Origin: a phage
Sequence record: PZ386967.1
DNA: 64,000 bases
Direction: 5' to 3' (one strand)
The notes under the pieces are model-generated. The model worked only from the letters and a program-made list of their open reading frames with translations. It had not been told where the DNA came from and did not search any database. Made by a program: the position numbers and the translations under genes. Below, one piece after another: positions 4,551-41,449 of the stretch (position 1 is the stretch's first letter; each line of letters starts with the position of its first letter).

Positions 4551-4578
4551 TTGAATTACTTTACTTCTTCAATAACTC
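4551..4578 (+). promoter_or_regulatory. T4-type early promoter (-35 TTTACT, 16-bp spacer, -10 TATAAT)
   Basis: Matches the repeated cassette; T4 early promoters have a GTTTAC-type -35. Conserved leader and start context follow. Confidence 0.55.
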
Positions 4579-5025: not shown

Positions 5026-6801
5026 CAGTTCATACCGGATAAGACCACACCCCCAGATACGCCCCAACCCGGCTTCCACCGACAGCATATCCTCTGTTTT
5101 GCCTTCTATATCGTATCCAAGTTTAAGGAATTTCTCTTTCCTGAAATTGAATTTGTGTATACGTAAGCTATAGTCTGGTGTCACATATTTGTAATCAGGG
5201 GGAAGGATTTCCTTTTCAACAAATCCGTTATTCAGGTAAACATTTTTCAGACGACTGACAACACAACGATCACCAAAAGAATATACTGTCTCACCCCGAT
5301 GTCGAGCGATATAATATTTCAGCAAGCGTGAGAATGCGCCATGGCAATTGTTAGAAGCAAATCTCACCAATTCAATACCATGCACTCGTTTGGTAAACAA
5401 CATCACCGCCTGGATATTCCCAGTTTTGTCTACAAGGTGTATATAATCTGTCGCCACCACACCACCTTGTATATGGAATCGGTCGAGAAAGTCCTTGGAC
5501 GTCCTATAGGAGCCTTCCAAAATGGTATGTTGGCGAGCGTATGACAATGGTTTCCCTATCCCCAATTTTGCTTTTAGGAGTGATTTAACCACTTCCTGTT
5601 TGTCACGCCACTCATCTTCCCAGATATGGATTAATTGAATACCCTGGGATTCACAGTGCATAGTCTTTTCAAGATGGTAGTCTTTGTATCGATGTTTCTC
5701 CGAATGCCAATACAACCCATTAAATTCTATTGCCAACTTATGTTCTGGGCAGTATATGTCTATCTGGCGTGTGGTCGCCCTCCCGTCGAACATTTTACCT
5801 CTGAGGACGGAGAAATTACCAGATTCATAAACGACACCCAATGAATCCAGGTATGAACATATTTCTATTTCTGGCTGTGTTTGGCTTTGGCTGCTGGGGT
5901 ATGTGAAAGAGTTCCTATATTCTTCAGAAGAGAAATAGTGAGGTACGCCGTATTTTTCTTTTGAAATGATCCTGGTATTGGCCTGGCTTCTATCCCATAT
6001 AGCCTTTACCTTCAACGGATAATCAACCCCATATTTTAAGACGCATGTTTTCTTTCTCTTTTCTATAATGGAATTGAGGAACATTGGATGATCCACACCA
6101 TAGATCTTCCTCCAAGTCTCAATCACCCTTTCCCTCACTTCTGGCATTTTCATGACGTGTGATACGCCATAGCGTTCCATGACAGAAGCAGCCACTCTGT
6201 CCTTTATAACATCAGACTTCATAGGGTGGTCGACCCCATATTTCTTAAGGGCAGTTTCCCGTGACTTTTGTTTTACTTCTTCCAGTTGGAATATGTTGGC
6301 TACGCCATATTTCTCTGTTATGGCGTTTTCTAGGTTGGCCCGTTCTGAGCCTCCCACCTTCATTGATTCTCGTTGGCATTCTTCGGAACAAAACTTTTTG
6401 TATCTGGGCGGTTGGGCTTCCATTTCTAAGCCGACGTCAGCACCGCAAGTGGCACACTGCGACTTCGGAATATCGTACAGCCAAGCAGTTATCGCTTGTG
6501 GTTCTTCTAATAGGTCGTTGTGTGACACCACGTATCCAACAACATCAACCCCAGTATGGGCCGTGAGTAGGGGATGAGAGATAAGTTTGTAGTTCAACGA
6601 ACCATCTTTCTTCCTGAGTTTACTATCAACCCAAGAGCGGCATTCGGTTTCGGTCGTCGGGATGTCATCCAACAAACCCGGATTGCGTTTCATCGTTCCC
6701 AGCATGAATGATTTGCATTCGTCACTACAATACAACGCAGCCTTCCTGGTTGGGGTGAACGGTTTGTGGCAGCATAAACAATTTTTATCGGGGAATGGCA
6801 T
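5017..6801 (-). CDS. Free-standing homing-endonuclease-like protein: N-terminal zinc ribbon, five KYGV repeats, C-terminal PD-(D/E)XK-like nuclease domain
   Basis: CCHKPF...YCSDEC and CATCG...FCSEEC cysteine pairs; repeated ~28-aa units (EKYGVANIF, KKYGVDHPM, ERYGVSHVM, KIYGVDHPM, LKYGVDYPL, EKYGVPHYF); C-terminal IDIYCPEHKLAIEFNGLYWH...IWEDEW resembles Vsr/DUF559-type nucleases. Antisense insertion between gp18 and gp19. Likely ATG at 6801; the track starts at GTG 6816. Confidence 0.6.
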   Translation of the reverse strand: MPFPDKNCLCCHKPFTPTRKAALYCSDECKSFMLGTMKRNPGLLDDIPTTETECRSWVDSKLRKKDGSLNYKLISHPLLTAHTGVDVVGYVVSHNDLLEEPQAITAWLYDIPKSQCATCGADVGLEMEAQPPRYKKFCSEECQRESMKVGGSERANLENAITEKYGVANIFQLEEVKQKSRETALKKYGVDHPMKSDVIKDRVAASVMERYGVSHVMKMPEVRERVIETWRKIYGVDHPMFLNSIIEKRKKTCVLKYGVDYPLKVKAIWDRSQANTRIISKEKYGVPHYFSSEEYRNSFTYPSSQSQTQPEIEICSYLDSLGVVYESGNFSVLRGKMFDGRATTRQIDIYCPEHKLAIEFNGLYWHSEKHRYKDYHLEKTMHCESQGIQLIHIWEDEWRDKQEVVKSLLKAKLGIGKPLSYARQHTILEGSYRTSKDFLDRFHIQGGVVATDYIHLVDKTGNIQAVMLFTKRVHGIELVRFASNNCHGAFSRLLKYYIARHRGETVYSFGDRCVVSRLKNVYLNNGFVEKEILPPDYKYVTPDYSLRIHKFNFRKEKFLKLGYDIEGKTEDMLSVEAGLGRIWGCGLIRYELEN

Positions 6802-29653: not shown

Positions 29654-29687
29654 GCTCTGAATAATATTTCAACCTGTCAATAATATA

Positions 29688-29720
29688 ATGCCCGGTTATA
29701 TTCAATCGGGCATTTTTATT
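29688..29720 (+). terminator. Terminator hairpin within promoter-like region
   Basis: AATGCCCG-(12 nt)-CGGGCATT followed by TTTTATT; flanked by TGTCAATAATATAATG and TGTCGTAATATAATAG boxes. Confidence 0.5.
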
Positions 29721-29804
29721 ATATTAATTGGCATCAATACCGCCTGTCGTAATATAATAGTCCCATGTTAAAATAGTTAGGAAATATAACTCACGAGAGC
29801 CTGA

Positions 29805-29981
29805 TGACCGACAACAAATTAAAACGTGTCGGACTTGATTGTCTTGACAATTCATTCCGCCCCAGTGATGTTCTGGTCGCCCAAATGGAAAACAACCGGG
29901 ATTTCATTGAAACTATGCTGGAGAACGCCGACGCGAACTCCAAACACTCCAAAGCCCAAAAAGGTCAAAACGATGATTGAA
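29805..29981 (+). CDS. Small protein (58 aa), coupled to the downstream vWA gene
   Basis: ATG 29805 to TGA 29979-29981, overlapping the vWA ATG (ATGATTGA); replaces the Pro/Thr-rich N-terminal extension in track ORF 29826. Confidence 0.35.
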
Positions 29982-32174
29982 TCATTAACATTTAAGAATG
30001 CGGTTGCGACCGTTGCGCCGTCTAACCATGTAATCGTTGTGGATATCTCCGGTTCCATGTATCGTTCACTTCCAGAAGTCCGTAAGCATCTGAAGGAGAA
30101 CCTGCCTTCCCTGGTGAAACCCGAAGATACTGTGAGCATCCTTTACTTTTCATCTCGCGGTGATTTCGGAACGGTATTTGCCGGACGCCAGATCGGTGTC
30201 GCATCTGACCTGAGCGAGCTGAATAAGCTGATCGATCGCTTCCTGCAACCGTCCGGATGTACTGGCTTTGTTGAGCCGTTGAAACTGGCGATGGACACTG
30301 CTCGTAGCCTGAAGAAGCCTGGCTATGTCAACAACCTGGCGTTCATGACTGACGGGTATGACAACTGCTGGCGTACCAACGAAATCTTACTGGTTGCTGA
30401 GACCCTGCCATTTGCTTTCGATAACATTACTTTCATCGAATACGGCTGGCACTGTAACCGCGAACTGCTGGCGCAGATGGCCGAACGCTCCGGTGCGACC
30501 CACGTGTTTGCCGAAGGTCAGACCGAATACCAGACCGAACTAGAAAACGTGCTGAAGTCATCAGTGCCGAAGGTGAAAGTTGATGTCCCAGTCATCTACA
30601 CCCATGCCATCTACGTCGAAAACGGTGTGGCAACAGTACTGGCGGTGCAGGACGATGACTCTCACCCGGTCGGCTATGTGAGCATCCCTGAGAGCGTCAC
30701 CAAGCTGTGGGTTGTAAACCCTAACATGATCGACCAGCTTGATGCGCTGGCGGACATCCAGGCGGCATACGTGCTGGCGTTCTACGGCGTACACATCATG
30801 GACGCAGACCTGGTATGGGCTGCGCTGAAGAAGACGGGCGACGTTCGCTTCATCAAACAGTACAGCAACTGCTTTACCAAGCAGGACTACTCCAACATCA
30901 AGAACGATCTGGTACAGGCGATTGTTGACGACCAGCTGCGCGGCGTTGACGGTATTGACTATGACCTGGTTCCGGCTGAAGATGCGACGACCGTCGTTGA
31001 CGTGCTGACGTATCTGGCTGAAGCTGGCGTGTCTGTTGCCACCAAACATCCTATGTTCTCCTACAAGAGCATTGGTCGCGGTACTGTGCAGAAAGCGGAC
31101 GATACCGAAGACAAACTGGCAGAACAGATCGCGAATGCTCAGTCCAAAGAAGAGCGTAAAGCCCTGGCTCTCAAGCTGGCTGAGCACGAAGAATGGACGC
31201 CGTCGTTTGAACCTGCCAACGATCTGGGCGTTATCTCAATCAGCGATCTGGTCTACAACTCTGAGCGCCCGAACATCAGTGTGCGCACTATTCAGCATGG
31301 TACTGTGACTGTCCCTGAGTTCGCACAGAAGAAGTTTGGTCTGCCTGAAGAACTGGATACTTTCCAGTGGCGCAACTACACCATCGTCAAAGATGGTATC
31401 ATCAACGTGAAGACCCTGCCGTTCAAGGCTGATATCGAAGTTGTACAGAAGCTGATCGAAATGGGCGTCCACGTGTTTGGTGGACCGGAAGTGTTTGTCC
31501 TGAACCTGGAAAGCGTACCGCTGGTCAACCGCGCCATGGTCAAGAACATCAGTGCTGCTCAGTTCTTTGCGGATAATGTCCGTTTGGAAGCCCTGAAAGG
31601 CAAGCAGAAGGTGCTGAAGTTCTATCGAGACGCCCTGGTTGGTAAAGGTAACGCCAAAGGCCTGGCAGTACAGTACGGCGCTGAGGCGGCCGAGTTCCTG
31701 TCCTCCTACGGCATCCGCGATTACGGCTTCTCACCGAAGACTGAGACCAAAGAGTCTACCGACTTCTACATGAGCCGGGAGCTGAACGTGAAGATCGCTG
31801 GCGCTTCATCTCTACCGTCTATCGCAGCGGTACAGAAGAAGATTGCCGAGAACAAGAAACTCAATGCTGGTGACTTGTTCATCGCCAATGCTCTGAAAGA
31901 GTACGAAGCATTCGTGAAGTCTCCTATGATCACTGCCGTGCCTGAAGCCTTACAGAAACAGCTGATCGAAAACTGGATCGACGCTGCTGCCAAGGCGGCC
32001 ATCACCGAAGTCCGTGCCCTGAACAAGACACTGTCTAAAGTGGTGTATGGTATCGTTGCTGGCCACGGCTGGTTCACCGACCTCGACCTGGAAGAGTCCA
32101 CCATGGAAGTTGAAGTGGATGGCGTGAAGTACAAGGTCACTGCCGAACTGACAGAGAAAGAAATCAAAATCTAA
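29973..32174 (+). CDS. von Willebrand factor A (vWA) domain protein, 733 aa
   Basis: MIDAS motif DISGSM near N-terminus followed by a vWA-like region (LAFMTDG); long C-terminal extension of unknown function. Confidence 0.6.
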   Translation: MIESLTFKNAVATVAPSNHVIVVDISGSMYRSLPEVRKHLKENLPSLVKPEDTVSILYFSSRGDFGTVFAGRQIGVASDLSELNKLIDRFLQPSGCTGFVEPLKLAMDTARSLKKPGYVNNLAFMTDGYDNCWRTNEILLVAETLPFAFDNITFIEYGWHCNRELLAQMAERSGATHVFAEGQTEYQTELENVLKSSVPKVKVDVPVIYTHAIYVENGVATVLAVQDDDSHPVGYVSIPESVTKLWVVNPNMIDQLDALADIQAAYVLAFYGVHIMDADLVWAALKKTGDVRFIKQYSNCFTKQDYSNIKNDLVQAIVDDQLRGVDGIDYDLVPAEDATTVVDVLTYLAEAGVSVATKHPMFSYKSIGRGTVQKADDTEDKLAEQIANAQSKEERKALALKLAEHEEWTPSFEPANDLGVISISDLVYNSERPNISVRTIQHGTVTVPEFAQKKFGLPEELDTFQWRNYTIVKDGIINVKTLPFKADIEVVQKLIEMGVHVFGGPEVFVLNLESVPLVNRAMVKNISAAQFFADNVRLEALKGKQKVLKFYRDALVGKGNAKGLAVQYGAEAAEFLSSYGIRDYGFSPKTETKESTDFYMSRELNVKIAGASSLPSIAAVQKKIAENKKLNAGDLFIANALKEYEAFVKSPMITAVPEALQKQLIENWIDAAAKAAITEVRALNKTLSKVVYGIVAGHGWFTDLDLEESTMEVEVDGVKYKVTAELTEKEIKI

Positions 32175-32216
32175 TCCAACGGGCGGGGCAACCCGCCTTT
32201 CTTTGGGAGAAGTAGC

Positions 32217-32540
32217 ATGAGCAGTAAACCAACATATGTTGAAGTCATGCGTCATCTGGCTCAGTACGCCACTGACAATCTGAACTTGGATCTGTGGCGT
32301 GACGATGACAAGCGCAAATTGCTGGACGACGTGGCATCTCAGAACGAGGACGCCCTAGACAAGCTGGCTGGCCTCCGCACCAAGAAAGACCTCGGCGGTG
32401 ATGAACTGGACGCTATCGAAATTGTAATGGACCTCGAAGAAGAGTTTCAGGTCGAAATCGACGATGGTTGGCTGGGCAGTAAAGGTGATGACCCGACCAT
32501 GGGTGAACTCGCTGAACTCGTGGTTGCCCTGCGCAAATAA
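32217..32540 (+). CDS. Acyl-carrier-protein-like acidic protein with the phosphopantetheine Ser replaced by Glu
   Basis: DLGGDELDAIEIVMDLEEEFQVEIDD aligns with E. coli ACP [26 protein letters not shown]; the attachment Ser is Glu here. Confidence 0.55.
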   Translation: MSSKPTYVEVMRHLAQYATDNLNLDLWRDDDKRKLLDDVASQNEDALDKLAGLRTKKDLGGDELDAIEIVMDLEEEFQVEIDDGWLGSKGDDPTMGELAELVVALRK

Positions 32541-32544
32541 CAGA

Positions 32545-32609
32545 AGTCCCCAACAAACGTTGGGGATTTTTACTTTTAGGGGTTTACTTCTATAATGTAA
32601 ATGCGTATT
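32545..32609 (+). promoter_or_regulatory. Terminator plus T4-type early promoter cassette (copy A)
   Basis: Hairpin TCCCCAAC-AAAC-GTTGGGGA with T-run, then -35 TTTACT (32581-32586), 17 bp, -10 TATTAT (32604-32609). Confidence 0.55.
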
Positions 32610-32660
32610 ATTGAATTCATAGAGCGGGGCGTTCCTGTTCATTGAAAGAAGGTATACATT

Positions 32661-32885: not shown

Positions 32886-32902
32886 GCATAACTTTTATTA
32901 AA

Positions 32903-32968
32903 TCCCCAACAAACGTTGGGGATTTTTAACTTTTAGGGGTTTACTTCCTTTAAGGAATGTCCTATTAT
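32903..32968 (+). promoter_or_regulatory. Terminator plus T4-type early promoter cassette (copy B)
   Basis: Near-identical to copy A (1-bp indel); -35 TTTACT 32940-32945, -10 TATTAT 32963-32968. Confidence 0.55.
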
Positions 32969-33259: not shown

Positions 33260-33318
33260 TTCTATAACTTTGGGCGGGGTATGATTACCCCGTCTATTTG
33301 AAATGCAGGAACTATACC

Positions 33319-33825
33319 ATGACCGATCAACAAATTCAAGATTTATTTTACCTCGTCCATGATAAGTCCCACATCATGCGCCCCGGTACTGTTTCCCCTG
33401 CCGTCCGTGATCTGGTGCAAGAATTGCGCGAACCACAGACGACCACACTTTATCGCGGGTTGCCTAAAGAGGACGTTGCGCGTTTAGAGATGATGTTTGA
33501 ACGAGGCGACATGTTCCAGACATGGGATTCTTGCCTTAGCTTCAGTGAACTGAAGCATGTGGCCAAAAAATTTTCTAAATCGTACGGAACCCAAGCTGTT
33601 GCCCGCATTTGTTACAAACATCGAAACAGACTCCCGGAGGGGCTTAATGTCTATGGTTCTCTAGAAAAATTTGTGAACAAAGGCGATGAATCAGAAATGG
33701 ATATGCTGGACTTGGCGTCCATGGAGAAAGAATGGATATTCTGCCAGCCTCGCGTCATACCAGTTTCAAGAAAAATGGCAACAGACGGCACGATGGTTTT
33801 TACCGTATCACTTGTTACCCTATAA
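33319..33825 (+). CDS. Hypothetical protein (168 aa)
   Basis: ATG in conserved GGAACTATACCATG context; flanked by identical 31-bp hairpin-leader repeats. Confidence 0.5.
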   Translation: MTDQQIQDLFYLVHDKSHIMRPGTVSPAVRDLVQELREPQTTTLYRGLPKEDVARLEMMFERGDMFQTWDSCLSFSELKHVAKKFSKSYGTQAVARICYKHRNRLPEGLNVYGSLEKFVNKGDESEMDMLDLASMEKEWIFCQPRVIPVSRKMATDGTMVFTVSLVTL

Positions 33826-41441: not shown

Positions 41442-41449
41442 TATTTATA
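41442..41449 (-). promoter_or_regulatory. T4-type late promoter (TATAAATA) on minus strand
   Basis: Exact TATAAATA (plus-strand TATTTATA) upstream of the minus-strand gene. Confidence 0.5.

Follow-up and report, generated by a model that had tools for sequence, protein, structure and literature searches.

What use does a phage have for a relative of the acyl carrier protein (ACP) in which the serine that should bear the phosphopantetheine (Ppant) group is missing? The question is raised by a small gene in phage sequence record PZ386967.1, of which a stretch of 64,000 nucleotides (nt), here termed the window, was analysed. The open reading frame (ORF) lies exactly at the coordinates listed below, with GGGAG at 32205-32209, 7 nt upstream of its ATG, and its acidic product has a pI of 4.24, with 27 Asp and Glu residues against 13 Lys and Arg residues. 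We find that this product is a descendant of the ACP of type II fatty-acid synthesis (AcpP type) that has kept the four-helix fold and is most likely a protein-binding module rather than a carrier. The gene and the parts of its product on which the argument turns are:

32217..32540, + strand: coding sequence of the ACP-like protein (107 amino acids (aa) plus stop, 12.1 kDa, pI 4.2)
32283..32372, + strand: fast-evolving, family-specific helical insert, residues 23-52, between helix I and the loop before helix II (alignment with shorter ACP-like relatives)
32388..32465, + strand: AcpP-type recognition helix II with flanking loop, residues 58-83, DLGGDELDAIEIVMDLEEEFQVEIDD (alignments)
32403..32405, + strand: GAA, the codon of E63, which aligns with AcpP Ser36 and opens helix II in the model (alignments to solved ACPs, relatives, model)
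32466..32507, + strand: family motif (G)W.G..GDDPT.GE, residues 84-97 (alignments)

An earlier note, made from the DNA letters, had described the product as ACP-like, and this description is borne out by similarities above chance in several comparisons: 1) The Pfam PP-binding model (PF00550) is matched with 24.8 bits (cut-off 20.8; E 2.7e-5), a marginal pass, while PP-binding_2 (PF14573) gives the lowest Pfam E-value, its 27.4 bits nevertheless lying below the cut-off of 32. 2) A phmmer search of the sequences in the Protein Data Bank (PDB) recovers the Bacillus subtilis ACP (E 1.6e-5), with D-E-L of the phage protein aligned on D-S-L, and a profile of the whole family reaches an E-value of 5.7e-9 against the PDB. 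3) PHROG 4154, labeled 'acyl carrier protein', is matched with an E-value of 6.8e-57. 4) Aligned with Escherichia coli AcpP, the protein shares 10 of 15 residues across the helix-II window, the corresponding figures being 1 of 13 for helix I and 1 of 11 for helix IV. Among NCBIfam models, those for AcpP (TIGR00517) match best, restricted to residues 54-83 and scoring 33.7 bits against a cut-off of 70.45, with the remaining ACP equivalogs also below their cut-offs. A first structure model, made with 24 close sequences, had a predicted local distance difference test score (pLDDT) of 68 and weak Foldseek E-values; with eight distant relatives added the score was 84. The predicted model has the four-helix fold of carrier proteins, as the earlier note had supposed, and its structural matches are carrier proteins and ACP-like subunits, plus one mitoribosomal protein. 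GenBank and RefSeq records as well as PHROGs already name the protein 'acyl carrier protein', a name that states its ancestry and not its function.

The residue at the serine position is what sets the family apart. The replacement of Ser by Glu that the earlier note had read in this phage is correct (E63), but across the family it has to be restated as a replacement by either acidic residue: in an alignment of 32 sequences the position is Glu in 25 and Asp in 7, Asp being typical of the large Kuttervirus (ViI-like) group, and the codons used at 25 loci are GAA (14), GAT (8), GAC (2) and GAG (1). D-E-L or D-D-L is read in each of the 38 full-length cluster representatives obtained by homology, ten more distant relatives have Glu or Asp, and the full-length relatives at 33-50% identity that emerged when 1.84 billion representatives were searched with a profile likewise have one of these two residues. 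Neither Ser nor Thr was found at the attachment position among the relatives recovered by homology, down to 33% identity. A scan of metagenomes for distant members returned one true family member, a close relative, together with unrelated ACP-like proteins bearing D[ED]L. The persistence of an acidic residue, never Ser or Thr, across the family and through four different codons argues that selection maintains acidity at position 63. Our literature search found no paper on this protein, on its lost serine or on serine-less phage ACPs.

With the attachment serine permanently lost, and Glu or Asp in its place in all members, the protein, to judge from its sequence, cannot be a carrier. A genuine carrier modified at another residue or through unusual chemistry might be argued from the pass of the PF00550 threshold, from the label in GenBank, RefSeq and PHROGs and from the Thr or Ser retained at position 94 in the DDPT motif, but we regard this as extremely improbable: no family member has the attachment Ser, the TIGR00517 score falls short of its cut-off, and T94 is structurally elsewhere, at the start of helix IV. 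Phosphopantetheinyl transferases of both the AcpS and the Sfp type act on the hydroxyl of a Ser at the N-terminus of helix II. Moreover, no such transferase, no fatty acid synthase, polyketide synthase or nonribosomal peptide synthetase and no lipid enzyme, hence none of the acyl-handling machinery, is annotated in the complete genome of a close relative (PQ306799). Still less credible is a decaying, functionless remnant of a captured host acpP. The lost catalytic serine and the far divergence of helices I and IV from AcpP would suit such a relic, but tblastn recovers the gene from 272 phage records, essentially all Ackermannviridae, with the ORF intact and full length in 271 of them, as it is in relatives down to 33% identity, and the invariant surface residues, the conserved family motif and the acidity at position 63, kept through four codons, are not what decay leaves behind. 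Both a true carrier role and a decaying relic are contradicted by these data.

Conservation is concentrated where an ACP meets its partners. Helix II spans residues 63-77 in the model, and D62, D65, E68, E74 and D83, the last just past the helix, are invariant in the 32-sequence alignment, with E76 present in 30 of the 32. Alignment columns of the helix II region have an average identity of 0.66, those of the insert 0.33, and while overall identity drifts to 33%, the residues that stay conserved are those of the ACP recognition helix. By alignment, D62, E68 and E74/E75 of the phage protein correspond to D35, E41 and E47/E48 of AcpP, residues that form ion pairs with AcpS (bioRxiv 10.1101/2025.01.28.635281); the earlier note was right in that the acidic docking surface is kept. 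The sole part of the protein that is still AcpP-like is, then, the very surface that AcpP partners recognise. The remainder has its own character: the insert, modelled with helices at 30-40 and 44-51, is missing in canonical ACPs, and the family motif contains a 3-residue insertion in place of the AcpP helix III-IV loop.

What the protein might bind is a matter for more cautious statement. Tentatively, and with somewhat less than even confidence, we propose from its sequence and from analogy with known systems that it mimics host AcpP in a cofactor-independent way. Its acidic helix II would dock on the basic patch of at least one host protein that AcpP normally binds, and the mimic, never loadable, would block or hijack this partner in early or middle infection. 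Candidate targets would be the acceptors of apo-ACP, namely PlsB, MukB and AcpS. The earlier note had suggested a decoy that titrates host ACP-interacting proteins, which is plausible as a hypothesis. An acidic side chain where helix II begins may be favoured simply because it suits a helix N-terminus; alternatively, it may imitate the phosphodiester of holo-ACP. Published work offers several parallels: PlsB is inhibited more by apo-ACP than by holo-ACP, and apo-ACP arrests growth (PMC3896788); the ATPase of MukB is activated by apo-AcpP as well as by holo-AcpP (PMC8602292); MukBEF is inhibited by a phage protein, gp5.9 of T7 (PMC7617805); and the mACP of Plasmodium, which lacks Ppant, acts as a binding partner (PMC8547962).

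Several considerations speak against such a mimic. Host AcpP ranks with the most abundant soluble proteins, at ~0.25% of soluble protein and tens of micromolar, so that any competitor would have to be expressed at very high levels or bind with a much higher affinity, and massive expression is not what is suggested by a gene that is preceded by a terminator-like hairpin and lacks its own promoter match. Some AcpP partners, SpoT for example, do not bind apo-ACP. The exported lipoproteins with a D[ED]L helix II described below imply that an AcpP-like helix II can persist without AcpP partner enzymes. Finally, the strict linkage of the gene to an upstream gene for a protein with a VWA domain and a metal ion-dependent adhesion site (MIDAS), which the earlier note had overlooked, fits a phage-internal partner equally well. 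The elements of this locus are:

29687-29714: terminator-like hairpin ahead of the promoter match (consensus scan)
29728..29755, + strand: sigma-70-like promoter match, TTGGCA-16-TAATAT (consensus scan alone)
29804..29980, + strand: 58-aa ORF, first gene of the unit, its stop overlapping the VWA start (ATGATTGA) (sequence; equivalent small coding sequence in relatives)
29973..32174, + strand: 733-aa VWA/MIDAS gene (Pfam VWA, PHROG 2426, homologues)
32181..32198, + strand: GC-rich hairpin with a short interrupted T tract between the VWA and ACP-like genes (consensus scan; predicted fold -17.3 kcal/mol)
32547..32566, + strand: strong terminator-like hairpin plus TTTTT directly after the ACP-like stop (fold -18.5 kcal/mol, z -5.4)

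The ORF listing starts the VWA gene at a GTG at 29826, with homologues favouring the ATG at 29973. The consensus scan found no second + strand promoter match between 29755 and 32569, and we infer that the ACP-like gene is the last of a three-gene unit, reached by read-through of the intergenic hairpin. The latter is found in the same place in eight relatives, distant ones included, in which the stems differ yet still pair; it is terminator-like and probably leaky, and as a leaky terminator or as a stabiliser of the mRNA 3' end it may set the ratio of the two proteins. The palindromic hairpin that closes the unit was called by the scan on the minus strand only (32566..32547), its + strand reading resting on the predicted fold.

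As to the time of expression, the T4-type late-promoter motif TATAAATA does not occur near the ACP-like gene. The window as a whole has two exact matches to it, at 41442 (-) and 52155 (+), no more than expected by chance, and this phage may use late promoters that depart from the T4 consensus. Downstream of the gene stand promoter-like cassettes of the form TTTACT-N16-18-TATNAT, which has 6 matches in the window versus 0.02 expected. Near-identical cassettes are seen at 32547-32611 and 32900-32968 and also at 4560, 35204 and 54535, each with the TTTACT-N16-18-TATNAT site placed after a terminator hairpin, TCCCCAACAAACGTTGGGGA with a run of T; they are probably early-promoter units, each driving a small ORF. 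In the annotated relative PQ306799 the ACP-like gene is on the same strand as a replication and host-takeover block that encodes a RegA-like repressor, clamp loader, MazG, ADP-ribosyltransferase, helicase, RNase H and late sigma factor; the replication and host-takeover genes around it have sigma-70-like promoters. The promoter-like motifs suggest early or middle expression of the ACP-like gene; the literature yielded no transcriptome of an enterobacterial member of the Ackermannviridae. Three genes downstream of the ACP-like gene, at 33298-33825, is encoded a 175-aa protein that looks like a small Mod-like ADP-ribosyltransferase: it matches the C-terminal part only (1265-1425 of 1480) of PHROG 832, 'RNA polymerase ADP-ribosylase', and its counterpart in a relative has a Pfam Mod_ADP_RT match.

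The 3-kb region around the gene shares 96.8% identity with Escherichia phage vB_EcoM-ZQ1 and 92-96% with other Agtrevirus-like Ackermannviridae. At Kuttervirus distance the ACP-like protein evolves faster than its VWA neighbour (~61% versus 83% identity). Homologues of the ACP-like gene also appear in OR844942.1 (Enterococcus phage Efm 3-10), where the protein is full length with ~59% identity, and in two 'Pseudomonas' records; the Enterococcus-named record may have been mislabelled or contaminated. When virions of the related phage Sajous1 were analysed by mass spectrometry, a single peptide was obtained from each of the two proteins, ACP-like and VWA (PMC10892097). Since one peptide is all that was recovered, we regard the ACP-like protein as non-structural, and the VWA protein is non-structural too.

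A small, acidic, non-structural, phage-specific protein that evolves faster than its neighbour invites comparison with the DNA mimics and anti-restriction or anti-defence proteins of the Ocr, ArdA and gp5.9 kind, in which an acidic surface copies the DNA backbone, and the earlier note had offered this as one option. We consider it very unlikely. Ordinary AcpP, with a pI of 4.05, is just as acidic, and the conserved residues trace the ACP recognition helix and do not suggest a periodic, phosphate-like array. PADLOC gave no significant hit for the ACP-like protein and no meaningful one for the VWA protein, the 58-aa ORF or the ADP-ribosyltransferase; the structure and PADLOC searches brought up no structural or sequence resemblance to a known DNA mimic or anti-defence protein, and the literature search no support for such a role of the phage protein. 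This part of the earlier note was accordingly set aside.

The other explanation that has to be weighed is that the protein is an accessory subunit or ligand of another phage protein, the likeliest candidate being the 733-aa VWA/MIDAS protein, whose gene would be co-transcribed. Here the exposed, invariably acidic residue that opens helix II, or else the whole acidic helix, would complete the coordination of the MIDAS metal, by analogy with the Asp or Glu that an integrin ligand places at the MIDAS. ACP-fold proteins often serve as structural subunits of larger complexes. The VWA domain of the 733-aa protein lies at the N-terminus (29.3 bits with Pfam VWA, over the cut-off) and includes an intact DxSxS motif (VVDISGSM); a MIDAS is annotated in the KP15 homologue. 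The protein belongs to PHROG 2426, where its function is given as unknown, and has no relative among the PDB sequences. It also shows a faint match to the virion RNA polymerase domain PF21769 (E 0.075).

In favour of this partnership, the order 58-aa ORF, VWA gene, hairpin, ACP-like gene is kept in relatives at 33-50% identity, four of which have the ACP-like gene after a ~740-aa VWA homologue with a gap of 40-43 nt. The unit is flanked by strong terminator-like hairpins, with the sole promoter match ahead of the small ORF; each of the two genes is found in about 270 Ackermannviridae records; and both proteins were at trace level in the same virion preparation. On the other hand, adjacency is not independent evidence because the entire gene block is syntenic in these phages. 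VWA homologues are further present in more than 230 other records, full length at ~49% identity in Straboviridae (KP15, RB43, Miller) and as weaker, partial matches in Bacillus phage PBS1 and Rhizobium phages (~26-29% identity, with 39-79% of the query covered). None of these more than 230 records gave an ACP-like tblastn hit, and no ACP-like neighbour of the VWA homologue was seen in the flanks inspected in KP15, PBS1 and P10VF, from which it follows that the VWA protein can do without the ACP-like one; conserved though the pairing is, it is no requirement for the VWA protein. Furthermore, a phage-internal pair would have been free to co-drift, and yet the helix II surface is still AcpP-like. 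We view a phage-internal partner as an unlikely explanation, though as the main rival, and continue to favour a mimic of host AcpP.

Serine-less ACP folds are not confined to this family. In IMG/VR at least 151 confirmed D-S-L ACPs stand against 24 with D[ED]L, 5 of these outside Ackermannviridae, a rough comparison in that the two counts used different patterns. These five, on unrelated contigs of 44-265 kb (L021-L025; match at about 5900-6200 in each), are ACPs of canonical size (78-85 aa) in which the attachment Ser is Glu, in motifs such as GADELD and EADELD; their occurrence on unrelated contigs indicates that replacement of the serine by an acidic residue arose more than once in phage ACPs. 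A different type is found in bacterial and metagenomic proteins of 110-180 aa that combine an N-terminal lipobox Cys with a C-terminal D-E-L or D-D-L ACP domain (loci L028, L030, L032, L037 and L041; proteins P0092, P0096, P0097, P0111, P0127, P0173, P0174, P0190, P0194, P0195 and P0200). Their sequences mark them as apparently exported, serine-less ACP-fold lipoproteins, and the genomic contexts of two of them, P0200 and P0190, showed no recurrent or informative neighbours. The shorter ACP-like relatives with D-E-L, P0051 among them, have few homologues and lie on short contigs. Together, the viral and the lipoprotein examples suggest that the ACP fold serves non-carrier purposes more widely than is now recognised.

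A broader version of our proposal, that Ackermannviridae and, independently, other phages deploy a permanently unloaded mimic of AcpP, the most highly connected hub protein of the host, to shut down or hijack an AcpP-dependent host machine, is more doubtful than the proposal for this protein by itself; the machines in question would be PlsB and lipid synthesis, MukBEF and chromosome organisation, or AcpS. Were it true, carrier-protein mimicry would be an undescribed strategy of host takeover or counter-defence. The protein, if it does mimic AcpP, would point to an AcpP-dependent host process that these phages must disable and would found a new class of small phage effectors on the ACP fold. 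The gene is present in about 270 sequenced Ackermannviridae genomes, including ViI/Kuttervirus relatives of biocontrol phages directed at Salmonella, E. coli O157, Klebsiella and Dickeya, and PHROGs files the family among auxiliary metabolic and host-takeover genes.

Compared with AcpP, as modelled by PF00550 and TIGR00517, the phage protein differs in four respects: 1) Glu or Asp stands in place of the phosphopantetheinylated Ser. 2) A 30-residue helical insert follows helix I. 3) A 3-residue insert with the GDDPT motif precedes helix IV. 4) It falls far under the TIGR00517 cut-off, and the partner enzymes are not annotated in the genome. Lacking what defines a functional ACP, it should not be filed as one. 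T7 Ocr and gp5.9 are, like it, small, acidic, phage-encoded and non-structural, but have no relation to it in fold or sequence. The complex I subunit SDAP/NDUFAB1, AcpM with EmbA-EmbB and AcpM with MmpS5L5 illustrate ACPs as structural subunits of large complexes. The mitochondrial ACP subunits still carry acyl-Ppant, which is inserted into the partner, an interaction that is impossible for the phage protein. Closer is Plasmodium mACP, a Ppant-less ACP used as a binding subunit, with whose type the phage protein, an ACP fold with the attachment Ser replaced and conserved under selection, agrees; mACP is, however, eukaryotic and organellar, binds the LYR protein Isd11 in complex with Nfs1, and is of independent origin, and no LYR-type protein was noticed adjoining the ACP-like gene. 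Serine-less binding ACPs thus have a precedent in the apicomplexan mACP, and the phage protein is no new category. The activities on MukB and PlsB are those of host AcpP itself, binding of the phage protein to them being proposed; they illustrate that an ACP surface without Ppant suffices to activate one host enzyme and to inhibit another, which is the same mechanism that we propose for the phage protein.
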